DNA from: Candidatus Aminicenantes bacterium UBA6072
Lineage (GTDB): Bacteria; Acidobacteriota; Aminicenantia; UBA2199
Reading direction: 5' to 3'
DNA length: 64,000 nucleotides
Assembly: GCA_002436105.1 (NCBI GenBank)
Contig: DIXU01000003.1
Location: 107,773-171,772 of the forward strand
The notes beneath the pieces were generated by a model. It ran no database searches. It was not told the origin of the DNA and saw only the letters and a list, made by a program, of their open reading frames with translations. This document shows, in pieces, positions 14,189 to 35,748 of the stretch (positions are counted from its first letter, which is position 1; every line of letters begins with the position of its first letter). A program made the translations under genes and the position numbers.

Positions 14189-14194
14189 GAACAA

Positions 14195-14402
14195 GTTCGA
14201 AGTTCGGGGTTCGATGTTCGATGTTTTTAAGAGAGGGCAAAAGAACAAAACAGAGCCAATTCCACGGATTGGACAATCCCTGATTTCTTCTTCCCTCAAA
14301 GTCGAGCTTCGAACGACGAACCTATGGCGTCGTACTCCTCATGGCTCTCGTTTTTTTGCCTTCTTTCTTCAACGTCGAACCTCGAACGTCGAACGTCGAA
14401 CC
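14195..14402. repeat. Inverted tandem-heptamer element A (composite)
   Basis: Left array GTTCGAA GTTCGGG GTTCGAT GTTCGAT (14195-14222). Inner partner GTCGAGC TTCGAAC GACGAAC (14301-14321). Outer array CGTCGAA CCTCGAA CGTCGAA CGTCGAA (14373-14400), the exact reverse-complement unit. Inner purine/pyrimidine inverted core and a CCAAT...ATTGG mini-hairpin. Confidence 0.7.
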
Positions 14403-14415
14403 TGTAGATATTTCA

Positions 14416-14483: not shown

Positions 14484-15641
14484 ATGATCAAGGGGAAATA
14501 TCTGTTCACGTCGGAATCGGTGTGCGCCGGTCACCCGGACAAGGTTTGCGACCAGATCTCCGACAGCATTCTTGACGCCTGCCTGGAGCAGGACCCGGAC
14601 GCGCGCGTCGCCATCGAGGCGGTGACCAAGACCGGCATGGTGCTGGTCGCCGGCGAACTGACCACCAAGGCCTACGTCAACATCCCGACCATCGTTCGCC
14701 AGACCCTCAGGGAGATCGGCTACACCAAATCGCGTTACGGCATCGAGTACGAGACCTGCGCCGTGCTGGTGCACATCGAGGAGCAGTCTCCCGACATCGC
14801 CCAGGGAGTGGACGCGGCCCGGGGCCACGAGCAGGGCGCCGGCGACCAGGGCATGATGTTCGGCTACGCCACCAGCGAGACCCCCAGCTACATGCCGCTG
14901 CCCATCGCCATGGCCCACAAGCTGACGGCGCGCCTGGCCCAGGTGCGCAAGAACAAGACGATCCCCTACCTCGGTCCCGACGGCAAGGCGCAGGTGACCG
15001 TGGAATACGAGAACGGCCGGCCGCGCCGCATCACGGCGGTGGTCGTATCCAATCAGCACGACGACAAGATCCGTCATGCGCGCATCGAGAGGGATATCAT
15101 CCGCCATGTGGTCAAGCCCGTGTGCAGCAAGTGGCTGACCCCCGAAACCAAGTTTTACATCAACCCCACCGGCAAATTCGTCGCCGGCGGCCCCTACGCC
15201 GACGCCGGGCTGACCGGACGCAAGATCATCGTCGACACCTACGGCGGCATGGGCCGGCACGGCGGCGGCGCTTTCTCCGGCAAGGATCCCAGCAAGGTCG
15301 ACCGCTCCGGCGCCTACGTGGCGCGCTACATCGCCAAGAACGTCGTGGCCGCCGGGTTGGCGAGAAAATGCGAGGTGCAACTGGCTTACGCCATCGGCGT
15401 CGCCGAACCGGTTTCGATCAACGTCAACCTGTTCGGGACCGGCACGCTGAGCGAAGAGAGGATCACGGCCATGATCCGCAAGGTATTCCCGCTGAAGCCG
15501 GGCGACATCCTCCGCGAACTCAAGCTCAAGCGGCCGATCTACAAGCAGACGGCTTCCAACGGCCATTTCGGCCGCAGCGAGTTCCCCTGGGAGAGGCTGG
15601 ACAAGGTGAAAGAGCTCAAGGCCTTGGCCAAGAGCAAATAA
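14484..15641 (+). CDS. metK: S-adenosylmethionine synthase
   Basis: [51 protein letters not shown] 14484 is preferred over the track's GTG 14478 because GGAGG sits 5 nt upstream. Confidence 0.95.
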
Positions 15642-15785
15642 CCAGACGTTAGACGTTAGATTTCAGACGTCAGCAAGACAAAGAAAGGCATTGGATGATA
15701 AACAGAGAACGGTTGCAAGAAAATGATGGATGTGTTTTTCCCCCTTCTTGCTAACGTCTAACGTCTGGCATCTGATGTCTGAGAT
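15642..15785. repeat. Inverted tandem-heptamer element B
   Basis: AGACGTT-type heptamers (15642-15677) and GTCTAAC-type heptamers (15747-15785). CCAGACGTTAGACGTTAG (15642-15659) is a perfect inverted repeat of CTAACGTCTAACGTCTGG (15751-15768). Core is AAGACAAAGAAAGG ... CCCCCTTCTTG. It starts right after the metK stop. Confidence 0.8.
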
Positions 15786-15816
15786 TTTTCATGATGAATT
15801 TTTTTAGGAGGACACA

Positions 15817-20046: not shown

Positions 20047-21432
20047 ATGGAAAAGAGAGAAGTGGAAAACATCGGCGAGTTTTTTTCCAAGGAGAGCGGC
20101 ATCCTGACCCCGGAAAAAAAGTGGGAGGAGATCTTTTCGGGCTGGCTGGACAAGATCGACCAGGAAAAGATGATGCTCAACCTTTTCGAGCTGAAGCTGT
20201 GGTTCGAGAGCATCGAGGAATTCAACTCATCGCCCTACCTGGAGAACCTGGCATTCCAGCGCCACGCCCCCGGCGAGCGCAACTACGAGTTCTACGTCTT
20301 CGGGCTGCACCAGGCCTCGGCGCGCATCACCGCCCTGCTCAAGGAGCTGGACTTCAAGAAGGACAGCTATTTCCTCAACTTCGAGGAATACGTCGTGGAG
20401 AAGATGCTGGAACAGAACATGGACAAGTCCTTCCCCAGCCTGAAGGAACTCTACTCCCCCGAGTCATGGTTCTACAGCTTCCGCATCTTCCTGCAGAGCT
20501 TCCGCAACCTGCTCAGCGAGATCCTGCGCCTCGACCAGGTCTCGCAGCGTGCCTACCTGTCGATCAAGAAGCTGTACCACCGCGAGCTGCTCAACAACCC
20601 CATCCTGATATCCCTGCTCAAGAAGCAGTTCATCTCCAAGATGGACAAGATCTATCAGCCGGACATCTCATCCATCATCGCCTCCTGCCAGGACAAGATC
20701 CTGCGCAAGAACCTGGGCATCTTCTTTATCCTCTCCTTCCGTGTCCTGAAGATCAACAATTTCATCGAGCTCAACGTGGATAAGAGCAAGTACCTGGACC
20801 TGGTCATCCCTCTGGCCCTTTCCCTGAAGAAGAACATGGATGACCTCATCCACTTCAACGACACGGTCCTGTGGCCGTGCCTGCAATCCAACCCGGAGCT
20901 GAAGAAGAAGCTGGGGCCGATCGGGGACATATTCAAGAGCCTCAAGCTCGAGTACAAGAAGATCTGGGAAGGCGAACTGCCTTTCTATTTCGCCAGCGAC
21001 AGCAGCAAGCTCAAGAAGCGCCAGATGATCCAGAATATCGTGATCATCGCCGAGGTGGCCCTGCAGGAGCTCATCGAGACCCTAGCCCGGCTGTTCAAGC
21101 CCGGCATCCAGGGCAGCAGCATTTTCGAAAAATACGTCTCGCGCAAGCAGAAGTCGATCGAGGTCAAGAAGAAGCTGATCCGCCTGCACACCAAGATCAA
21201 CGATTATTTTGCCCACAGGGAAAGCATCGCTCCCTCCGAGATCTTCTTCGATATCAACCAGTTCATGGAGAGCGACCTGAACTATCTGCTCTACAAGGAT
21301 TGGAACGAATTCCTCGGCTACTACGACAACCTCAGCCGCACCAATTTTTCGGCCGAGTTCGAGCCCACGCTGAGATCGTTCCACAGCTTCCTGACCCGCG
21401 TCCTGAAGGAGATCGTCAGCGAGAAAAAATAG
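20047..21432 (+). CDS. Hypothetical all-helical protein (461 aa), K/F/L/N/S/E-rich
   Basis: Long ORF with strong G/C third-position bias like its neighbours. No motif recognised. The track ORF start (19612) overlaps the opposite-strand kinase gene, so ATG 20047 behind the promoter is used. Confidence 0.6.
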   Translation: MEKREVENIGEFFSKESGILTPEKKWEEIFSGWLDKIDQEKMMLNLFELKLWFESIEEFNSSPYLENLAFQRHAPGERNYEFYVFGLHQASARITALLKELDFKKDSYFLNFEEYVVEKMLEQNMDKSFPSLKELYSPESWFYSFRIFLQSFRNLLSEILRLDQVSQRAYLSIKKLYHRELLNNPILISLLKKQFISKMDKIYQPDISSIIASCQDKILRKNLGIFFILSFRVLKINNFIELNVDKSKYLDLVIPLALSLKKNMDDLIHFNDTVLWPCLQSNPELKKKLGPIGDIFKSLKLEYKKIWEGELPFYFASDSSKLKKRQMIQNIVIIAEVALQELIETLARLFKPGIQGSSIFEKYVSRKQKSIEVKKKLIRLHTKINDYFAHRESIAPSEIFFDINQFMESDLNYLLYKDWNEFLGYYDNLSRTNFSAEFEPTLRSFHSFLTRVLKEIVSEKK

Positions 21433-21543
21433 ACGTCAGACGTTAGACGTCAGTGGTCAGCAAGAAAAGGCTCAGGACATGGTTTTCTACTTCTGGCTAG
21501 CATCTAACGTCTAACGTCTAACATCTAACATCCAACGTCCGAT
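21430..21543. repeat. Inverted tandem-heptamer element C
   Basis: TAGACGTC AGACGTT AGACGTC AGTGGTC AGCAAGA (21430-21466), a short core AAAGGCTCAGGACATGGTTTTCTACTTCTGG, then TAGCATC TAACGTC TAACGTC TAACATC TAACATC CAACGTC (21497-21538). Same unit as element B. The left array begins in the TAG stop codon. Confidence 0.8.
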
Positions 21544-21580: not shown

Positions 21581-24520
21581 ATGAAACGGGCATTCCCCTT
21601 TTCCCTCCTGCTGATCCTGGCCCTGGCGCTGCCGGCCGTACGCTACCCGTTCATCAACTACCGCAGCTCCGAGGGGCTGCCGCAGAGCAACATCACCGCC
21701 CTGCTGCAGGACCGCGAAGGGTTCATCTGGGTGGGCACCCAGGCCGGCCTGGGCAAATTCGACGGCAGCCGCTTTCAATCGCTCACCTCCCGCGAGGGAC
21801 TGGCCGGCAATTACATCACCGGCCTGGAGATGGACCGCGACGGCGTCATCTGGGTGGCGAGCCAGAACGGCCTGAACCGGATCCGCTCGGGGCGCGTGAG
21901 CTCCTGGCCTTTGCCCGACGGCTTCGTGCGCATCATCGCCTACAGCCCCGTCGACCTCACGCTCTGGGTCCTGACCGACCGCAGCCTCTTCACCGTCCGC
22001 GAAGGCCGGACCGGACGCTTCACCCGCTTCCCCGATCCGGGCCGCCTGGTGGGCATGGCCGCCGGCGCCACCGGCATGGTCTTCCATACCTCCGAGGCTG
22101 TCTTCCTGTGGAAAGGAGGCCAGCTGCAGCGGTTCCCCAGCCCCGAGCCGGTCAATTTCGTCAAGGAAGCGGAAGGGCATCTCTTCGTCGGCTGCCGGAA
22201 CGGCCTGTACGTGCTGAACGCCTTCGGGGAATTCAAGAGATACGCCGGCCTGCCCGAGGCGCTGGGCGATGTCACCGACATCCTGTTCGATGCCAGGAAA
22301 AACCTTTGGGTCGGCAGCCGCAGCGGCATTTTCTACAAGAACCTGCAAACGGGTGAAGCCACGGTACTCAACATGGCCAGCGGCCTGATCTACGACCGCG
22401 TATCCAGGTTGCTGCTCGACCGCGAGGGCAACGTCTTCATCGGCACCCGCCTGGGCCTTTCGCAGCTCTCCCGCCACCTGTTCCGCATGTACGGAACGGA
22501 AGATGGACTGCCGTCGACGCATGTCTGGGACATCCTGGAGGACGATGGCGCCGTCCTGCTGGGCTGCGAGGACGGAGTCGCCGAGCTGCGCGACGGCCGC
22601 ATCCGCCCTTTCGCCATCAACAGCCGGCTGAAGAGCCACTCGATCCGCGCCATCGTGCGCCTGAATGACGGGCGCTACCTGCTGGGCTGCGGCGACGGCG
22701 AGATATTCGCGTGGGATCGCCGCGAGCGGCTGCAGAGCCTAACCTCCGGGTTTGCCGTACTGTACGCCATCCGCGACAGCGGCGGCTCGGCCTGGTTCGC
22801 CACCAACCGCGGCCTGCTGCAGTATGACGGTTCCGAGTTCCGCTGGTTCCGCGACGGCCTGAACGATCCGATCGTCTGGGATGTCGCCGAGCTGGAGCCG
22901 GGCGTCCTGCTGGTCGGCACCCGTCGCGGCCTGCAGCAGTTCCGCAACGGGCGCTTCACCTCCAGCGCCTGGGAGAAACTCGTCGGCCGCTCCATCGTCA
23001 ACGACATCCGCGTCATCGCTCCCGACGAGGCGCTGGTGGCCACCGAGATGACGGGGTTGCTCTGGCTCAAGGGCGGCACGCTGAAGCGTCTCACCCGGGA
23101 GCAGGGACTGCTGCACAGCGACGTCTGGTCGGTGCTGCGCGACGAAAGCGGCCACCTTTGGCTGAACACCACCCGCGGACTGGAGCGCTGGGCCCCCGAC
23201 GGTTCCCTGGCCTATTTCAACAAGGAAACAGGCCTTTTCGGGGATGAAGGCTGCGTCCATTCCGCCCTGAAGACGACCCGCGGCAGCCTTTATTTCGGCA
23301 TCCCCCCCGGCCTGGTCGAATACCAGTTCCTGGAAAGCGAAAGGCCGGCGCTCCCGCCCGGGCTGATCATCGACGCTCCACAGGTCCAGGGCAGCGCCGC
23401 CGTTGATCCGCTGTCCGCCGCTCTGCGGCACGACCAGAACACCATTGAGTTCAGCTATGTCTGCCCGACCACCAGCCGCGAAAGCCCCGTCTCCTACCGT
23501 ACCCGCCTCTTTCCCTTCGACAGCGACTGGTCGCCGCCCACGCGCGAGACGTCGGTGCGCTACACCAACCTGCCGCCCGGCACCTACACCTTCTCGGTGC
23601 TGGCCAACAACGGCGGCGGCACGGCCGGCTGGTTCGGCGCCGACCATCGCGTCATCTTCTCCATCGCCAGGCCATTCTGGAAGCGCTGGTGGTTCCTGAC
23701 CCTGGAGCTGCTGCTCGGGCTGGGGCTGCTGGCGCTGGTGATCCACGCCCGCGTCCGCGTGCTGAACCGCCAGAAAAAGAAGCTGGAGGATGTCGTCCAG
23801 GCCCGAACCAACGAGATCGCCGAGAAGAACCGCGAGCTGGCCCGGCTCTCCATCACCGATCCGCTGACCGGCTTGAAGAACCGCCGCTTCCTCGACGAGA
23901 CCATCCGCGAGGACATGAGCATCATCCAGCGCGAGATGCACAACGTGCGCGAGGGCCTGAAGCCCTTTGACGACAAGGCCTCCACCCTGGGCGTATTCAT
24001 GATCGACGTCGACCATTTCAAGCGCGTCAACGATGTGCACGGCCACGAGGCGGGCGACGCCGTGATCGTCGAGATCGCCCGCCGGCTGCTGGCCATGATG
24101 CGCCAGTCCGACAGCGTGGCGCGCTGGGGCGGAGAGGAATTCCTGATCATCACCCGCCAGTCGCGCCGGGCGGACGCCTACCCGCTTGCCGAGCGCATCC
24201 GCCAGACCATCGAGCAGACCGCCTTCGCCGTGTCTCCCGGGCAAACCATCAGGAAGACGATCAGCATCGGCTTCTGCCACTATCCCTTCCTCTGCCAGGG
24301 GGAGGAGAAATTGAGCTGGCACCAGGTGGTGGCCATGGCCGATACCGCGCTCTACCTGGCCAAGCACAACGGCCGCAACCTGGTGATCGGCATCGAACCG
24401 GGCCCGACGCCTTTTCACGGCGACGGGCAGGAACTGCTCGTTGACCTGGCCGCCGCGGTGAACAGGGGCACCATCGTGCTTTCCTGCCGCAAAGCGGTCA
24501 AGATCCCGGCCCACCCATGA
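21581..24520 (+). CDS. Periplasmic two-component-regulator-propeller/Y_Y_Y sensor fused to a GGDEF diguanylate cyclase
   Basis: Signal peptide, many repeats of the xGLxxNxIxxxxxDxxGxxWxGT type, one TM (WWFLTLELLLGLGLLALVI), a coiled coil, then GGDEF (RWGGEEFLII). Start at MKRAFPF. Confidence 0.85.
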   Translation: MKRAFPFSLLLILALALPAVRYPFINYRSSEGLPQSNITALLQDREGFIWVGTQAGLGKFDGSRFQSLTSREGLAGNYITGLEMDRDGVIWVASQNGLNRIRSGRVSSWPLPDGFVRIIAYSPVDLTLWVLTDRSLFTVREGRTGRFTRFPDPGRLVGMAAGATGMVFHTSEAVFLWKGGQLQRFPSPEPVNFVKEAEGHLFVGCRNGLYVLNAFGEFKRYAGLPEALGDVTDILFDARKNLWVGSRSGIFYKNLQTGEATVLNMASGLIYDRVSRLLLDREGNVFIGTRLGLSQLSRHLFRMYGTEDGLPSTHVWDILEDDGAVLLGCEDGVAELRDGRIRPFAINSRLKSHSIRAIVRLNDGRYLLGCGDGEIFAWDRRERLQSLTSGFAVLYAIRDSGGSAWFATNRGLLQYDGSEFRWFRDGLNDPIVWDVAELEPGVLLVGTRRGLQQFRNGRFTSSAWEKLVGRSIVNDIRVIAPDEALVATEMTGLLWLKGGTLKRLTREQGLLHSDVWSVLRDESGHLWLNTTRGLERWAPDGSLAYFNKETGLFGDEGCVHSALKTTRGSLYFGIPPGLVEYQFLESERPALPPGLIIDAPQVQGSAAVDPLSAALRHDQNTIEFSYVCPTTSRESPVSYRTRLFPFDSDWSPPTRETSVRYTNLPPGTYTFSVLANNGGGTAGWFGADHRVIFSIARPFWKRWWFLTLELLLGLGLLALVIHARVRVLNRQKKKLEDVVQARTNEIAEKNRELARLSITDPLTGLKNRRFLDETIREDMSIIQREMHNVREGLKPFDDKASTLGVFMIDVDHFKRVNDVHGHEAGDAVIVEIARRLLAMMRQSDSVARWGGEEFLIITRQSRRADAYPLAERIRQTIEQTAFAVSPGQTIRKTISIGFCHYPFLCQGEEKLSWHQVVAMADTALYLAKHNGRNLVIGIEPGPTPFHGDGQELLVDLAAAVNRGTIVLSCRKAVKIPAHP

Positions 24521-24533
24521 AAAGGAGCGCCTC

Positions 24534-24914
24534 ATGTTCGGATCGATAGGCTTCCCGGAACTGCTCCTGGTTTTTATCGTCGTGCTGCTGGTATTCGGCC
24601 CCGGGAAACTGCCGGAGTTCGCCAAGCTGCTGGGCAAGTTCCTGCGCGAATTCCGCTCGACCGTCGACCAGGCCAAGTCGGCCATCCAGGATGAAATCTA
24701 CAAGGAGGGGATGGCCGATCACATGAAGGATATCAGCCGCGACGTCCGCGAGGCGCTGAACATCACCGGCGACCTTGGCCGCGAGGTGAAGGATGCCCTC
24801 GATGCCGGCGGGACGATCCGGCGCGAGCTCAAGGACGCCCTGGACATCTACGGCATTGCCGAGCCGAAGCCCGCGCCCGGGGCGGAGGAGAAGGATGACG
24901 AGAAAAAGGACTGA
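24534..24914 (+). CDS. tatA: Twin-arginine translocase TatA/TatB-family protein
   Basis: MFGSIGFPELLLVFIVVLLVFGPGKLPE hallmark, followed by an amphipathic, acidic tail. Confidence 0.85.
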   Translation: MFGSIGFPELLLVFIVVLLVFGPGKLPEFAKLLGKFLREFRSTVDQAKSAIQDEIYKEGMADHMKDISRDVREALNITGDLGREVKDALDAGGTIRRELKDALDIYGIAEPKPAPGAEEKDDEKKD

Positions 24915-24918
24915 CGAG

Positions 24919-25665
24919 ATGTCGTTTTTCGAGCACCTGGGCGAGTTGCGCAAGCGCATCGTCTGGTCGCTGGCCTTTGTTTTCCTGTTCTTCCTGGCCT
25001 CGTGGACCGTCGTCGGCAAGCTCTATCACTGGCTGTCGCTGCCGGTGCTGAAATTCCTCCCTCCCGGTCCCGGCGGCGAGTCCAAACTGGCCTTCACCTC
25101 GCTGGCCGAGCCCTTCATGATGTACATCAAGGTGGCCTTCATCTCCTCGCTGTTCGCCGCCTCCCCCTTCATATTCCACCAGCTCTGGCTCTTCATCTCG
25201 CCGGCCCTGTTCCCCAAGGAGAAGCGCTGGGTCGTCCCCTTCGTCTTCGCCACCACCTTCTTCTTCCTGCTGGGCGGCGCGTTCGGCTATTTCATCGTCT
25301 TTCCCCTGGCCTGCAAGTTCTTCCTGGACATCGGCAGCGACTTCACGGCCATCATCACCATCAACGACTATTTCGCCCTGGCTTTCCGCGTCCTGTTCGG
25401 CATCGCGGCCCTCTTCGAGCTTCCCGTCCTGGTCTTCCTGCTGGCCAAGCTGCGCATCGTTAGCGCCCGTTTCCTGCTGCGCTATTTCAAGTACGCCATC
25501 GTGGCCATATTCGTGCTCGCCGCCGTCGTCACTCCCACTCCCGACATGATCACCCAGACGCTGTTCGCGGTGCCCATGATCCTGCTGTACCTGCTGAGCA
25601 TCCTGATCGCCAGGATCGTGAACCCCGGAGAAAAGGAAGAAAAGGGAAGAGAAAGGGAAGAATAA
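24919..25665 (+). CDS. tatC: Twin-arginine translocase subunit TatC
   Basis: MSFFEHLGELRKRI start and six TM segments. An alternative start is 24895. The C-terminal tail EKEEKGREREE is encoded by the left arm of repeat D. Confidence 0.9.
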   Translation: MSFFEHLGELRKRIVWSLAFVFLFFLASWTVVGKLYHWLSLPVLKFLPPGPGGESKLAFTSLAEPFMMYIKVAFISSLFAASPFIFHQLWLFISPALFPKEKRWVVPFVFATTFFFLLGGAFGYFIVFPLACKFFLDIGSDFTAIITINDYFALAFRVLFGIAALFELPVLVFLLAKLRIVSARFLLRYFKYAIVAIFVLAAVVTPTPDMITQTLFAVPMILLYLLSILIARIVNPGEKEEKGREREE

Positions 25666-25760
25666 GGGAAGAGAAAGGGAAGAGAGAGTGGGAAAAACCA
25701 GCGAAGCTTCTTTCTCACTTTGTTTTCCCTCTGCCTTCCCTCTCTCTTCCCTCTCCCTTC
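25628..25760. repeat. Inverted tandem-repeat element D (11-nt purine unit)
   Basis: About four GGGAAGAGAAA units (25628-25697), core AAAAACCAGCGAAGCTTCTTTCTCAC, then TTTTCCC TCTGCCTTCCC TCTCTCTTCCC TCTCCCTTC (25723-25760). The left arm overlaps the last 38 nt of tatC. Confidence 0.65.
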
Positions 25761-25761
25761 A

Positions 25762-25791
25762 TTGACAGCCACCCCTTCTTAATGGTATATT
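25762..25791 (+). promoter_or_regulatory. Sigma70-type promoter for tRNA-Ala
   Basis: TTGACA (25762-25767), N18, TGgTATATT (extended -10, 25786-25791), about 20 nt before the tRNA. Confidence 0.55.
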
Positions 25792-25810
25792 GGCCTCCAG
25801 TCGACCGTCC

Positions 25811-25881
25811 GGGGCCATGGTTTAATGGGAGAACGCGACCTTCGCAAGGTTGAGATGGCGGTTCGATTCCGCCTGGCTCCA
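25811..25881 (+). tRNA. tRNA-Ala (anticodon CGC)
   Basis: Hand-folded cloverleaf. Acceptor GGGGCCA/TGGCTCC with the G3:U70 alanine identity pair. D arm GTTT-AATGGGA-GAAC. Anticodon arm CGACC-TTCGCAA-GGTTG. T arm GGCGG-TTCGATT-CCGCC. Discriminator A. CCA is not encoded. Confidence 0.85.
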
Positions 25882-25921
25882 TAGGAATCAATCTCAACGA
25901 TCTCACTGCTGGTAAGATGGG

Positions 25922-26051
25922 GTACCATGGATCACGTGCCGCTTCCCATGTTCAAAGCCAATTTTCTGCAAGCACCAGTGTTCTTCAACGTGGAACCTGG
26001 AACATGGAACGTGGAACCTGGAACGTGGAACCTGGAACGTGGAACCGGCAA
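25922..26051. repeat. Inverted tandem-heptamer element E (strong right array, decayed left array)
   Basis: Eight NTGGAAC-type units (CGTGGAA CCTGGAA CATGGAA ...) at 25989-26044 plus one degenerate unit. An upstream weak complementary array TACCATG GATCACG TGCCGCT TCCCATG TTCAAAG lies at 25922-25956. Core is CCAATTTTCTGCAAGCACCAGTGTTCTTCAA. Confidence 0.6.
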
Positions 26052-26110
26052 CAGAACTATTGCCTCTGTAGTTTCGTACTTACGCTTGCTAGATCAATAG
26101 GAGGTTACTA

Positions 26111-28198
26111 GTGCAAAAAACAAATGAAAGAAGGCTGTCCGGGATCTTCCTGCTCGCAGCCGCAGTGTTCGTGCTGCTGGCCGGTCCCTTGGCCGCCGAC
26201 GAGGGGATGTGGACACTGGACAACATGCCCCTGAAGCAGCTGAAGGAAAAGTACGGCTTCGAACCGACACCGGCCTGGCTCGAGCATATCCGCCTGGCCT
26301 CGGTGCGCGTGGGCGACGGGGGCTCGGGCTCGTTCGTCAGTCCCAACGGGCTGGTTCTGACCAACCACCACGTGGCCCTGGGCCAGCTGCAGAAGCTCTC
26401 CAGCGCCCAGAAGAACTATGTGGCCGACGGCTTCTACGCCCCGACGCAGGCCGACGAGATCCCCTGCCCCGACCTGGAGCTCAATGTCCTGATCTCCACG
26501 GAGAACGTCACCGACAAGGTGATGGCGGCGGTCAAGAAAGGCATGGACCCGGTCAAGGCCCTGGAGGCCAAAAAGGCCGCCATCGCCCAGATCGAGCGCC
26601 TGAGCCTCAGGAAAACCGGCCTGCGCTCCGACGTGGTCTCCCTCTATCACGGCGGCGAATACTGGCTCTACCGCTACAAGAAATATACCGATGTCAAGCT
26701 GGTCTTCGCCCCCGAGCAGCAGGCCGCTTTCTATGGCGGCGATCCCGATAACTTCACCTACCCGCGCCACGACCTCGACATGGCCATCTTTCGCGCCTAC
26801 GAGAAGGGTATGCCGGCCAAAGTCACCCATTACCTGAAATGGAGCCCCCAGGGCGCCGCCGACGGCGAGCTGGTCTTCGTTTCCGGCCATCCCGGCTCGA
26901 CCAACCGCCTGATGACCCTGGCCCAGATCGAGTTCCAGCGCGACTTCGCCTATCCCCTGCGCATTCAGTCGATGAAGCGCATGCTGGAAGTGGCCCGCGC
27001 CTACGCCGCCGGGAGCCCGGAGCAAGCGCGCCAGGCCGCCGGCATGATCTTCGGCATCGAGAACGGGCTCAAGGTCTCCAGCGGCGAATACGAAGGCCTC
27101 AAGGCCGCCGGCATCATGGAAAAGAAAGCCGCCCAGGAAGCTGAATTCCGCAAGCTGATCGCCGCCAATCCCCAGTGGCAGGCCGAGTACGCCGGCGCCT
27201 GGGATGCGATCGCCGCGGCCATCGAGAAGCAGAAGCCGCGCATGAAGGAGATGACCTACCGGCGCCTCCCGGGCATGCGCCTGGGCGGCATCGCGCTGCA
27301 GATCGTCCAGCTCTCTGCAGAACTGCAGAAGCCCGACGGCCAGCGCCTGGACGGCTACCACACCTCCCAGCTGGACTCGCTGCGCTTCCGCCTCTTCTCA
27401 CCCGCCCCCATCTATCCGGGCCTCGAGGAGGTCATGGCCGTCGATGCCATCAAGCTGATGCTCGAGGAGCTTGGCGCCGATGATCCCTACGTCAAGGCCT
27501 GCCTGGACGGCAAGACGCCCGAGGAGGCGGCCAAGGCCCTGCTGGCCGGCACGCAGCTGGCCGACCCGGCTCTGCGCCGCATGCTGGTTGACGGCGGCCC
27601 GGCGGCCGTGGCCAACTGCAAGGACAGCTACATCGTGCTGGCGCGCAAGCTCGACCCGATGATCCGCGAAATGCGCAAGTGGGCCGAGGACAACATCGAG
27701 AGCGTCTCGAGGCCTGCCGCCGAAAAGATCGGCCAGGCACGCTTCGTCGCCTACGGCAAGAACGCCTATCCCGACGCCACCTTCACCCTGCGCCTCTCCT
27801 ACGGCGCCGTCAAGGGCTATCCGATGAACGGCACCCTTGCCCCCAGCAAGACCACTTTCCACGGCCTCATTGACCGCTCCCTCGGCTTCGACAACAAGCC
27901 CCCCTTCCACCTGCCCGAGCGCGTCGCCGCCGCCCGCGACAGGATCGACCTGTCCACGCCTCTGAACTTCGTCTGCACCGGGGACATCATCGGCGGCAAC
28001 TCGGGTTCGCCGGTGATCAATGCCGCCGGCGAGGTGGTCGGCCTGGTCTTCGACGGCAACGTCGAGAGCTTCATCGGTCGCTACTTCTACGACGACACCG
28101 CCAACCGCACCGTCTCGGTGCACAGCGCGGCCATGATCGAGGCCATGAAAAAGATCTACGGCGCCGACGCTCTGGCCAGGGAAATTCTCGGCGAGTAA
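26111..28198 (+). CDS. Peptidase S46 family dipeptidyl-peptidase (DPP7/DPP11-like)
   Basis: Signal peptide then DEGMWTLDN, catalytic His LVLTNHHVA, catalytic Ser GGNSGSPV. GTG start with AGGAGG 6 nt upstream. Confidence 0.9.
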   Translation: MQKTNERRLSGIFLLAAAVFVLLAGPLAADEGMWTLDNMPLKQLKEKYGFEPTPAWLEHIRLASVRVGDGGSGSFVSPNGLVLTNHHVALGQLQKLSSAQKNYVADGFYAPTQADEIPCPDLELNVLISTENVTDKVMAAVKKGMDPVKALEAKKAAIAQIERLSLRKTGLRSDVVSLYHGGEYWLYRYKKYTDVKLVFAPEQQAAFYGGDPDNFTYPRHDLDMAIFRAYEKGMPAKVTHYLKWSPQGAADGELVFVSGHPGSTNRLMTLAQIEFQRDFAYPLRIQSMKRMLEVARAYAAGSPEQARQAAGMIFGIENGLKVSSGEYEGLKAAGIMEKKAAQEAEFRKLIAANPQWQAEYAGAWDAIAAAIEKQKPRMKEMTYRRLPGMRLGGIALQIVQLSAELQKPDGQRLDGYHTSQLDSLRFRLFSPAPIYPGLEEVMAVDAIKLMLEELGADDPYVKACLDGKTPEEAAKALLAGTQLADPALRRMLVDGGPAAVANCKDSYIVLARKLDPMIREMRKWAEDNIESVSRPAAEKIGQARFVAYGKNAYPDATFTLRLSYGAVKGYPMNGTLAPSKTTFHGLIDRSLGFDNKPPFHLPERVAAARDRIDLSTPLNFVCTGDIIGGNSGSPVINAAGEVVGLVFDGNVESFIGRYFYDDTANRTVSVHSAAMIEAMKKIYGADALAREILGE

Positions 28199-28222
28199 GG
28201 TTTTCAAATCGCGCCAATGAAA

Positions 28223-28255
28223 GGCGGGGGCCCGCGCCCCCGCCTTTTTTATTTT
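28223..28255 (+). terminator. Rho-independent terminator of the S46 peptidase gene
   Basis: GGCGGGGGC-ccgc-GCCCCCGCC followed by TTTTTTATTTT. Confidence 0.75.
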
Positions 28256-28283
28256 GCGGCCAGGCGCTCGACCAACAGAAAGT

Positions 28284-28319
28284 AAAAAGGGCGGGGCACA
28301 GGCCCCGCCCTTTTCATTT
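28284..28319 (-). terminator. Rho-independent (bidirectional) terminator of the S9 peptidase gene
   Basis: GGGCGGGGC-acag-GCCCCGCCC (28289-28310), flanked by AAAAA on one side and TTTTCATTT on the other. On the minus strand it is followed by a T-run. Confidence 0.7.
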
Positions 28320-28343
28320 CAGGCGAAAATTACAGAAGCGGGC

Positions 28344-35667: not shown

Positions 35668-35748
35668 AATCAGTGATGAGTGATGCGTGATGAGTGATGA
35701 GAAACAGCGAGCCAACATCGTGCTTTTCTTTCCCATCACTATGGATCG
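35668..35748. repeat. Tandem-heptamer element F (asymmetric)
   Basis: AATCAGTG ATGAGTG ATGCGTG ATGAGTG ATGAGAA (35668-35703), core ACAGCGAGCCAACATCGTGCTTTTCTTTCC, then only CATCACT ATGGATC (35733-35746) as the complementary partner. It lies between the rpiB stop and the glyA start. Confidence 0.55.

Follow-up and report, generated by a model that had tools for sequence, protein, structure and literature searches.

We analyzed a 64-kb stretch of the genome of Candidatus Aminicenantes bacterium UBA6072 (contig DIXU01000003.1, positions 107,773 to 171,772; hereafter the window), in which a tatC gene is followed at short distance by a tRNA-Ala(CGC) gene with its own promoter. The gap between these genes is occupied by element D, a long imperfect palindrome with a purine-rich arm that runs into the end of the tatC coding sequence (CDS) and a pyrimidine-rich arm that stops just short of the promoter. 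An earlier reading of this DNA (the original prediction) regarded element D as a non-coding repeat recruited into the CDS, or, alternatively, as a CDS end that had been shifted by repeat expansion. We compared the window with loci of relatives, which are numbered L001, L002 and so on. Element D is a copy of a palindromic repeat that is dispersed through Aminicenantes genomes and has definable boundaries, and its junction with tatC and its arms are conserved over seven species. The interpretation that we favor, and hold with good confidence, is that element D is an old, orthologously inherited copy of this selfish-like repeat, whose purine arm has come to cover the last codons of tatC.

Structure of the tatC-tRNA-Ala junction

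The features of the junction are listed in Table 1. The TatC protein of the window ends in ...NPGEKEEKGREREE (...ARIVNPGEKEEKGREREE). Tandem Repeats Finder (TRF) identified an 11-nt-period array at 25628-25685 (5.4 copies, consensus GAGAAAGGGAA) and a complementary array at 25725-25760 (3.3 copies), and inverted-repeat arms were located at 25646-25695 and 25711-25760, with an imperfect complementarity of 76%. The 62-nt purine run at 25627-25688 is the longest in the window. It consists of 36 and 25 nt, compared with a maximum of 24 nt in shuffled sequence, and its sole pyrimidine, T25663, is the first base of the tatC stop codon. The pyrimidine tract of the element is approximately 45 nt long and includes a pure run of 27 nt. 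This arm ends at 25760, i.e., 1 nt upstream of the -35 box of a very good tRNA-Ala promoter (TTGACA at 25762, an 18-nt spacer, and a -10 box, TATATT, ending at 25791). When folded as RNA, positions 25615-25775 form a long interrupted hairpin (dG of -60.9 kcal/mol; z of -2.65 against dinucleotide shuffles).

Table 1. Features at the end of tatC and upstream of the tRNA-Ala gene (positions in the window)
Feature	Position	Strand	Description
tatA/tatB-type gene	24534..24914	+	Upstream of tatC; Pfam TatA_B_E, E 1.3e-16
tatC CDS	24919..25665	+	248 residues and TAA stop; Pfam TatC at residues 5-219, E 6e-64; matches solved TatC structures
Native part of the tatC tail, codons N-P-G-E-K-E-E	25621..25641	+	Outside the repeat; purine-rich through K/E codons; conserved in element-free orthologues
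Element-derived tatC end, codons K-G-R-E-R-E-E and TAA	25642..25665	+	First two 11-nt units of the purine arm, aligned to AGGGAAGAGAG / AGGGAAGAATG
5' (purine) arm	25642..25696	+	Four GGGAAG-type 11-nt units and inner core AGAGTGGGAAAA
Hairpin loop/spacer	25697..25710	+	Varies between species; 61.6% mean pairwise identity, 7 orthologous copies
3' (pyrimidine) arm	25711..25760	+	TTTCTCACTTTG and CTTCCCT-type units; distal unit count varies between species
tRNA-Ala promoter, sigma-70-type	25762..25791	+	TTGACA, 18 nt, TATATT with TG extension; outside the repeat; conserved in L003, which lacks the element
tRNA-Ala(CGC)	25811..25881	+	ARAGORN; Rfam tRNA, 64.6 bits

The original prediction had described element D essentially correctly with regard to its tandem arrays, its inverted-repeat arms and its position relative to the promoter, including the single nucleotide that separates the pyrimidine partner from the -35 box. 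Its purine run is also real. The distance of 38 nt from the start of this run to the stop codon is obtained only if the stop is counted; it is 35-36 nt to the first base of the stop, and the repeat itself starts farther in, at 25641/25642, which leaves 21-22 nt to the stop.

Element D belongs to a dispersed repeat family

A 20-nt pattern of the inner core, GGGAAGARARAGTGGGAAAA, was searched for exactly in one genome per bacterial and archaeal species. The search returned 86 stretches and approximately 64 complete palindromic copies, all of the latter in metagenome-assembled genomes (MAGs) of Aminicenantes; matches in other phyla were discarded as chance occurrences without a second arm. We then built a covariance model on 15 unrelated copies and the window copy and applied it to 571 kb of core-bearing loci. 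This model detected about 80 distinct copies in 12 Aminicenantes assemblies (about 29 of them, by tally, in a single fragmentary MAG), and matched the window at 25638-25769 with 114.8 bits (E 5e-35). Up to three copies may be found within 8 kb. Copies are approximately 113-138 nt long (the one in the window, at 25642-25760, approximately 119 nt) and almost all are intergenic. Several genomes that carry no element at tatC have copies elsewhere (UBA2199, Prado015, JTS-AC306 and Zod_Metabat.920), and the segment 25641-25696 has many unrelated flanks across metagenome contigs. Thus, the claim that element D is the only copy with an 11-nt period holds inside the window but not as a claim of uniqueness, since the element is one of a dispersed family.

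The family is confined to one Candidatus Aminicenantes clade and appears to be undescribed. Rfam contained no family matching the repeat and recognized only the tRNA, searches of the literature on Aminicenantes repeats found no papers, and the literature on short tandemly repeated repetitive (STRR) sequences offered nothing useful. One contig, L126, is labelled Syntrophales and shares its left arm and right-hand flank with L117 (Aminicenantes UBA2190); it is probably mis-binned.

From its left terminus through the purine arm, a typical copy reads (G)CTC AGGGAAGACAA AGGGAAGAGAG AGGGAAGAATG AGGGAAGAGAG AGTGGGAAAAG. A loop of approximately 14-20 nt follows, and the pyrimidine arm and right terminus read CTTTCCCACT TTGTCTTCCCT CTGCCTTTCCCT CTGTCTTCCCT CTCTCTTCCCT GGAG(C). 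The arms are 11-nt-period arrays of GGGAAG and CTTCCC blocks, respectively, placed around the inner core (AGAGTGGGAAAA ... TTTCCCACTCT) and the variable loop. The GGGAAG/CTTCCC heptads are the conserved blocks, and the 4 nt between them vary. With its usual termini, (G)CTCAGGGAAG ... CTTCCCTGGAG(C), the whole element is palindromic, i.e., it has terminal inverted repeats. The predicted structure comprises four helices of 6-8 bp (AGGGAAG with CTTCCCT), internal loops of 4-5 nt and, innermost, a helix of 11 bp. Among the paired cells of 80 copies, 86% are Watson-Crick and 8% are G-T pairs. Double changes were too few to prove pairing by compensatory covariation; G-T exceeded A-C by only 1.6:1 after the removal of two consensus G-T pairs.

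The genomic context could be classified for 62 copies on the basis of crude gene calls, i.e., stop-to-stop open reading frames (ORFs) with a G+C content at third codon positions (GC3) of at least 0.75. By these calls, 35 of the 62 copies have co-directional neighbors (17 copies in one orientation, 18 in the opposite one), 20 are flanked by divergent and 7 by convergent genes, and neither an orientation bias nor a preference for gene 3' ends was seen. Copies are present in L155 and L147; the orthologous site in L166 is free of the element and contains other short arrays, with no exact insertion junction. The profile of the family suggests a selfish repeat that resembles miniature inverted-repeat transposable elements (MITEs) or REPINs (doublets of repetitive extragenic palindromic, or REP, sequences) rather than a dedicated terminator.

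Two further observations concern the surroundings of individual copies. The loops of some copies (L086, L103, L129, L132, L160 and L164) contain a heptamer array (GTGTTAGTGTTAGTGTTTGTGTTAGCAA...), and other copies (L107, L120, L085, L094 and L141) sit between CGTACGG-type arrays, producing hairpins nested in hairpins. Complementarity between left and right flanks was not above that of a mismatched-flank control, so nesting in outer hairpins is anecdotal and not a general rule.

The boundary between native and repeat-derived tatC codons

Three independent lines of evidence agree on a left boundary at 25641/25642: the family alignment, the positions at which copies from other loci start to match the window (25641-25643 in metagenome contigs), and the points at which collinearity with element-free orthologues ends (25641 for L006 and L012, and 25634 for L003). 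The right boundary lies at approximately 25758-25760, similarity to L003 restarting at 25758. With the left boundary in this place, the NPGEKEE codons belong to native tatC, and KGREREE and the stop codon come from the repeat. The single array reported by TRF thus combines native K/E codons with repeat sequence.

A KGREREE-type ending was found at exactly seven orthologous tatC loci, namely the window, L001, L002, L004, L007, L013 and L020, which represent seven species-level genomes and all carry the element. It was found at none of the approximately 50 other Aminicenantes tatC loci, and the covariance-model search detected the hairpin at none of these. Orthologues with quite different downstream sequence, in turn, have the proximal tail sequence NPG[E/K]K(E)E as well. 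Examples of element-free tails are NPGEKAEE (L003), NPGKKEEE (L005), NPGKKEEVDG (L006), NPGDKKTAEE (L018), NPGKKQEPD (L019), NPGEKAEEE (L025) and NPGKKEETE (L027). A K/E-rich tail after an NP motif is also seen in very distant TatC proteins, one of them a solved structure (...VNPYKPEEKEDDEEE). The charged tail is therefore native to TatC, and repeat-bearing genomes are distinguished by its last seven residues only.

These comparisons divide the original prediction into parts. Recruitment of a non-coding repeat into a CDS is supported by the approximately 80 unrelated, almost always intergenic copies; its extent is limited to the last seven codons and the stop. The repeat does not encode the whole low-complexity tail, as had been proposed, since the proximal portion occurs in L003, L005, L006, L018, L019, L025 and L027. 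The proposed comparison of TatC C-termini across relatives thus gave a divided answer, in which KGREREE is present only together with the element and the proximal acidic/lysine tail is also present without it. In other words, a tail conserved in the absence of a downstream pyrimidine array does exist, for the NPG[E/K]K(E)E part only.

The element-derived residues lengthen the protein slightly: TatC has 246-248 residues when it ends in KGREREE versus 242-244 with other endings. This extension falls beyond the Pfam domain (residues 5-219) and the last transmembrane helix. Both termini of TatC are cytoplasmic, which places the tail in the cytoplasm. Across Aminicenantes, TatC tails range from almost none to about 26 residues, and among the carriers the element-derived residues themselves vary (KGRAREE, KGREKAE and KGRKREE). 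K, E, R and G are the only residues that a purine-only tract can specify, and no frame of it contains a stop codon, which accounts for the likeness of the fused tail to the native one.

The seven loci with the element share a single position of the stop codon, which is TAA or TGA. A unit capable of forming this stop (GAAT[GA]AG) is present in 32 of 72 family copies, 28 of which are not at tatC. Only two distances from the core occur for this unit, and the tatC copies have one of them, so that the tatC stop most probably arrived together with the element. Thirteen long ORFs end inside other copies and appear to be spurious, as their GC3 is 0.39-0.72 versus approximately 0.85 for real genes. The overlap with tatC is an exception for the family; elsewhere, no convincing gene ends inside a copy.

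Gain or loss of one 11-nt unit 5' of the stop, or loss of T25663, would result in read-through of the pyrimidine arm, i.e., a frameshift or extension that adds 37 to 59 residues, many of them hydrophobic. This cost accounts for the fact that all seven species have equal numbers of units 5' of the stop but differ in their numbers of distal 3' units. Metagenome contigs at 85% identity, which derive from other strains or loci, were free of indels where the arm is coding. The invariant unit number and the frameshift that a one-unit change in it would cause do not fit the suggestion that the CDS end was shifted by repeat expansion.

Conservation and history of the tatC copy

The relatives of tatC assign the source of the window to Candidatus Aminicenantes (OP8, Acidobacteriota). 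In total, 61 loci of the phylum were retrieved together with their flanks, and the closest tatC relative was L001, with 96% protein identity. The seven element-bearing loci share the ...NPGE(K)EEKGREREE tail, the stop position, the hairpin, and a co-directional tRNA-Ala gene with the same promoter. Mean pairwise identity among the seven orthologous copies is 88.5% in the coding part of the 5' arm, 90% in its non-coding part, 89% in the 3' arm and 61.6% in the loop, compared with 68.5% at 94 fourfold-degenerate sites of the same seven tatC genes. Conserved arms together with a drifting loop indicate that the palindrome is either maintained by selection or homogenized; selection on the palindrome and gene conversion from other copies fit the arm conservation equally well.

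In L003 and in each of the seven loci that carry the element, tatC and the tRNA-Ala gene point in the same direction. Another 13 relatives, among them the outgroup L025 and also L006 (L006:3865-4005), have tRNA-Ala(CGC) and its promoter inverted and convergent with tatC. The tatC-tRNA gap is a rearrangement hotspot. By flanking nucleotide identity, L006 is closest to the window (91%, versus 87-89% for L001 and L004), yet its tRNA and promoter are inverted, it lacks the purine/pyrimidine element, and its ...KKEEVDG tail resembles those of more distant lineages. A 3-kb tree placed the element-bearing loci in one clade, which also holds L003, L006 and L021; support values were not displayed in this tree and the position of L026 was odd. 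The different 3' ends of L003, L006 and L021 therefore point to later replacement or allele exchange. The simplest reading of the history of the locus is a single acquisition, after which the segment containing the tatC 3' end and the tRNA gene was replaced or exchanged in some lineages.

In four hydrocarbon-metagenome runs (X1-X4), 100% of the sampled words of 24500-26200 were indexed, yet no contig matched at 97% identity or higher (25500-25722). The contigs recovered at 85% were copies of the repeat from other loci only, at a depth of approximately 370-410x.

Origin and possible function of element D

We propose the following scenario. A family that behaves as a MITE- or REPIN-like selfish element (many copies, intergenic location, either orientation, presence or absence at matching sites) would have placed a copy between tatC and the tRNA-Ala promoter, such that native NPGEKEE came to be read straight on into KGREREE. 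The stop codon would be supplied by the T of the family unit GGGAAGAAT[G/A]A, which many copies carry, and the fused tail would be tolerated through its likeness to the native K/E-rich cytoplasmic tail. The hairpin may have been kept as an RNA 3' stem-loop or as a DNA palindrome that ends or stabilizes the tatA-tatC transcript. In this position, it could plausibly act as a transcript-end stem-loop that insulates this transcript from the tRNA promoter starting 1 nt downstream. In RNA-labelled libraries, contigs of distant relatives contain family copies, and one of them spans the end of tatC into the arm; these contigs may contain DNA and show no 3' ends. Global minimum free energy folds of the regions downstream of tatC in relatives were uninformative as to where the stems start.

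Several findings weigh against parts of this scenario. With regard to the insulator role, a terminator scan of 25628-25775 found no intrinsic terminator and no U-tract, the stem being followed by CAUUGACAGCC. Canonical intrinsic terminators (a GC-rich hairpin and a T-tract) stand back to back between convergent genes at 28215-28255 and 28283-28320 of the window, so ordinary terminators are used elsewhere in this organism, and the family is not enriched at gene 3' ends. As for mobility, no target-site duplications were visible in the flanks of 45 of the 75 copies that had usable flanks. The tatC copy lacks the usual outermost termini (GCTC... / ...GGAGC) and could have arrived by recombination instead of transposition. 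Conservation of its arms could stem from gene conversion with other copies and not from function. The distribution on the tree is not cleanly clade-like, given the other 3' ends of L006, L003 and L021. Finally, the context counts rest on the crude gene calls described above.

A considerably less probable but possible alternative is that element D is a neutral relic, i.e., the immobile remnant of a selfish repeat, with a tolerated tail and with apparent conservation due to gene conversion. The selfish behavior of the family as a whole, the lost termini of the tatC copy, the variable number of distal 3' units and the weak constraint on the tail (its wide range of lengths and the KGRAREE, KGREKAE and KGRKREE variants) are all consistent with this possibility. 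A relic is harder to reconcile with arms that diverge about 3-fold slower than fourfold-degenerate sites while the loop drifts, which is the pattern of a maintained stem, and with retention of the element at an identical junction in seven species.

We regard it as quite unlikely that element D is a regulator at the DNA level, acting either as H-DNA or a cruciform that forms under negative supercoiling and tunes the tRNA-Ala promoter, or through GGGAAG boxes that are phased by 11 bp and bind a protein. The 62-nt purine tract and the pyrimidine tract that ends next to the -35 box would suit such a role, as would the 11-nt period, which is close to one helical turn, the conservation of the heptads and of the arms as DNA with variable 4-nt gaps, and the lack of orientation bias, which fits a DNA feature better than a strand-specific RNA. 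However, the element-free L003 has a fully conserved promoter at an identical position, and no candidate binding protein was identified. The proposal of triplex or H-DNA potential is also not borne out. The homopurine/homopyrimidine character was confirmed (a 62-nt purine run with one interruption and a 27-nt pure pyrimidine run), and the tracts are long enough, but the best mirror repeat in the purine tract has a 15-nt arm with only 13 matches, and 21.5% of composition-matched shuffles equal or exceed it. The purine and pyrimidine tracts form an inverted repeat and not a mirror repeat, which favors a hairpin or cruciform geometry, and nothing specific in the sequence appears to favor H-DNA.

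A local origin, in which native purine-rich K/E codons slipped into an 11-nt array, pushed the stop downstream and were joined by a locally arising pyrimidine array, is very improbable: although the native codons GGAGAAAAGGAAGAA pass seamlessly into the array (one array at 25628-25685 according to TRF), and locus-specific arrays of 8-nt units starting inside the last three tatC codons in L012, L017, L024 and L006 suggest that seeding of arrays from gene ends may happen in this clade, the idea is already largely refuted by the dispersal of the same element, with its non-repetitive inner core and its order of arms, at about 80 unrelated loci in 12 assemblies, and it also conflicts with the fixed unit number 5' of the stop in seven species, where a one-unit change would cause a frameshift adding 37 or 59 residues, and with the break in similarity to element-free orthologues, which falls exactly at the left end of the family.

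If the acquisition of a repeat copy at tatC is the correct interpretation, tatC illustrates how a core membrane-protein gene can have its end rewritten harmlessly by a selfish palindromic repeat, with a chimeric end that has persisted across species. For annotation, the KGREREE tail and the purine array would best be regarded as repeat-derived and not as a lineage-specific functional motif of TatC. The analysis also uncovered a repeat family in an uncultured phylum, of which the 11-nt-period arms and the link to tRNA-gene rearrangement are the noteworthy properties.

Other array hairpins

The window contains five other array hairpins, at 14189-14405, 15641-15790, 21430-21540, 25920-26050 and 35672-35745. 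Each consists of a tandem array of 7-nt units (e.g., AGACGTY, AAGTTCG, AACGTGG/AACCTGG and AGTGATG), a spacer and a complementary array, and each extends from a stop codon, or from just past one, to a point shortly before the promoter of the next gene. The units differ by locus; the elements at 15641 and 21430 have the same unit and the same start of the spacer (CAGCAAGA..AAAG..GGC).

Further examples were seen downstream of tatC in relatives. The palindromic elements at L017:3710-3900 and L024:3710-3900 are exact reverse complements of each other, reflecting an inversion in situ of the whole element between the terminal inverted repeats that it carries (GGGTAAATGG...CCATTTACCC). An array of 8-nt units (GTTGAAGG GTTGATGA GTTAAAGG ...) in L012:2925-3025, L017, L024 and L006 is a second, unrelated array that overlaps the end of tatC, starting within the last three codons and the stop (..GAAGAAGTTGAAGGGTAG). 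This 'type B' array was considered as a dispersed family and rejected, since within Aminicenantes it is found only at orthologous tatC loci. Outside the phylum, the Calditrichia MAG JACKAP01 contains many hairpins with 8-mer arrays (L172:3925-4045 and about 17 other loci) of the form GTTGATGG GTTGATGG GTGAATGG ... / ... CCATCAAC CCATTAGC CCATCAAC, with the same architecture as, and units similar to, the Aminicenantes arrays downstream of tatC. The Flavobacteriaceae loci L168 and L201 also gave several matches.

It is conceivable, though on balance unlikely, that array hairpins with tandem arms of 7-, 8- or 11-nt units form a wider class, as yet undescribed, and that element D is its mobile representative. 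According to the same tentative idea, such hairpins would fill many co-directional intergenic gaps in Aminicenantes, lie in some cases within the loops of others, flip in place and accompany tRNA inversion. If one mechanism, such as a hairpin-recognizing recombinase or transposase, or a protein that binds phased units, builds, spreads and homogenizes array hairpins, it would represent a new bacterial repeat system, and the tatC fusion would be a by-product of it. In this respect, the broader population of array hairpins is a more intriguing lead than the tatC fusion itself.

Comparison with known repeat systems

REPINs are REP doublets that form hairpins and are mobilized by RAYT transposases (Bertels & Rainey 2011, PMC3116915). 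The family described here likewise has inverted arms and a spacer that together form a long hairpin, tens of copies per genome, extragenic location, random orientation and no target-site duplication. The 5' end of a REP sequence carries a conserved GTAG motif, whereas the consensus of our family has none, its nearest equivalent being GTGG in the inner core AGAGTGGGAAAA; arms that are internally repetitive with an 11-nt period are not a REP feature either. From MITEs, the family has the small, non-coding, dispersed copies and the terminal inverted repeats, but not the target-site duplication. It most resembles these two types, and we assign it to neither, as neither target-site duplications nor GTAG were found; no transposase search was made.

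Like an intrinsic terminator, element D provides a stable stem-loop right after a stop codon and right before the next promoter. It differs in having no U-tract and a stem of approximately 50 nt per arm that is A/G-rich and interrupted by internal loops. Moreover, the position at a gene 3' end is true of the tatC copy, whereas in the family 20 of the 62 copies classified by crude gene calls lie between divergent genes and 7 between convergent ones.

Intrastrand triplex motifs in bacteria have been described and linked to genomic instability (Holder et al. 2015, PMC4666352). Element D resembles these motifs and H-DNA-forming mirror repeats in its long purine/pyrimidine tracts and in its association with a rearranged locus, many relatives having an inverted tRNA-Ala. 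It is dissimilar in that its tracts form an inverted repeat and its mirror symmetry, which H-DNA calls for, is not above chance.

Cyanobacterial STRR sequences are intergenic short tandem repeats. In Beggiatoaceae, TAACTGA forms intergenic heptanucleotide direct repeats (PMC4679880). The other hairpins of the window are similar in having short intergenic tandem units, of 7 nt. They differ in that the known arrays are direct repeats of one genome-wide unit, whereas the window has complementary paired arrays with locus-specific units; element D differs further in its 11-nt unit.

The closest parallel to the tatC fusion is provided by the enterobacterial RU-1/RU-2 repeats (ERIC/IRU-type, MITE-like), which have been found fused to gene 3' ends (Delihas 2007, PMC2759123). 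By such fusions, the amidase ECA3499 was extended by approximately 35 residues and ECA4072 by 4 residues (PMC2759123). In both systems, a normally intergenic hairpin repeat of approximately 100-170 bp extends over the 3' terminus of a conserved gene, the protein is lengthened past its conserved domain, the stop is supplied or replaced by the repeat, and orthologues without the repeat are shorter. The two properties of an RU-type event are both seen at tatC: a multi-copy intergenic repeat crosses the stop, and the extension lies outside the conserved domain. The systems differ in sequence family and phylum, in the arms, which here are pure purine/pyrimidine arrays of 11-nt units and yield a peptide of K, E, R and G only, and in the conservation of the tatC fusion, which is shared by at least seven species and is no oddity of a strain. 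Fusion of a repeat to a gene 3' end is therefore a known event, and what differs here from known cases is the design of the arms, the host phylum and the persistence of the fusion across species.

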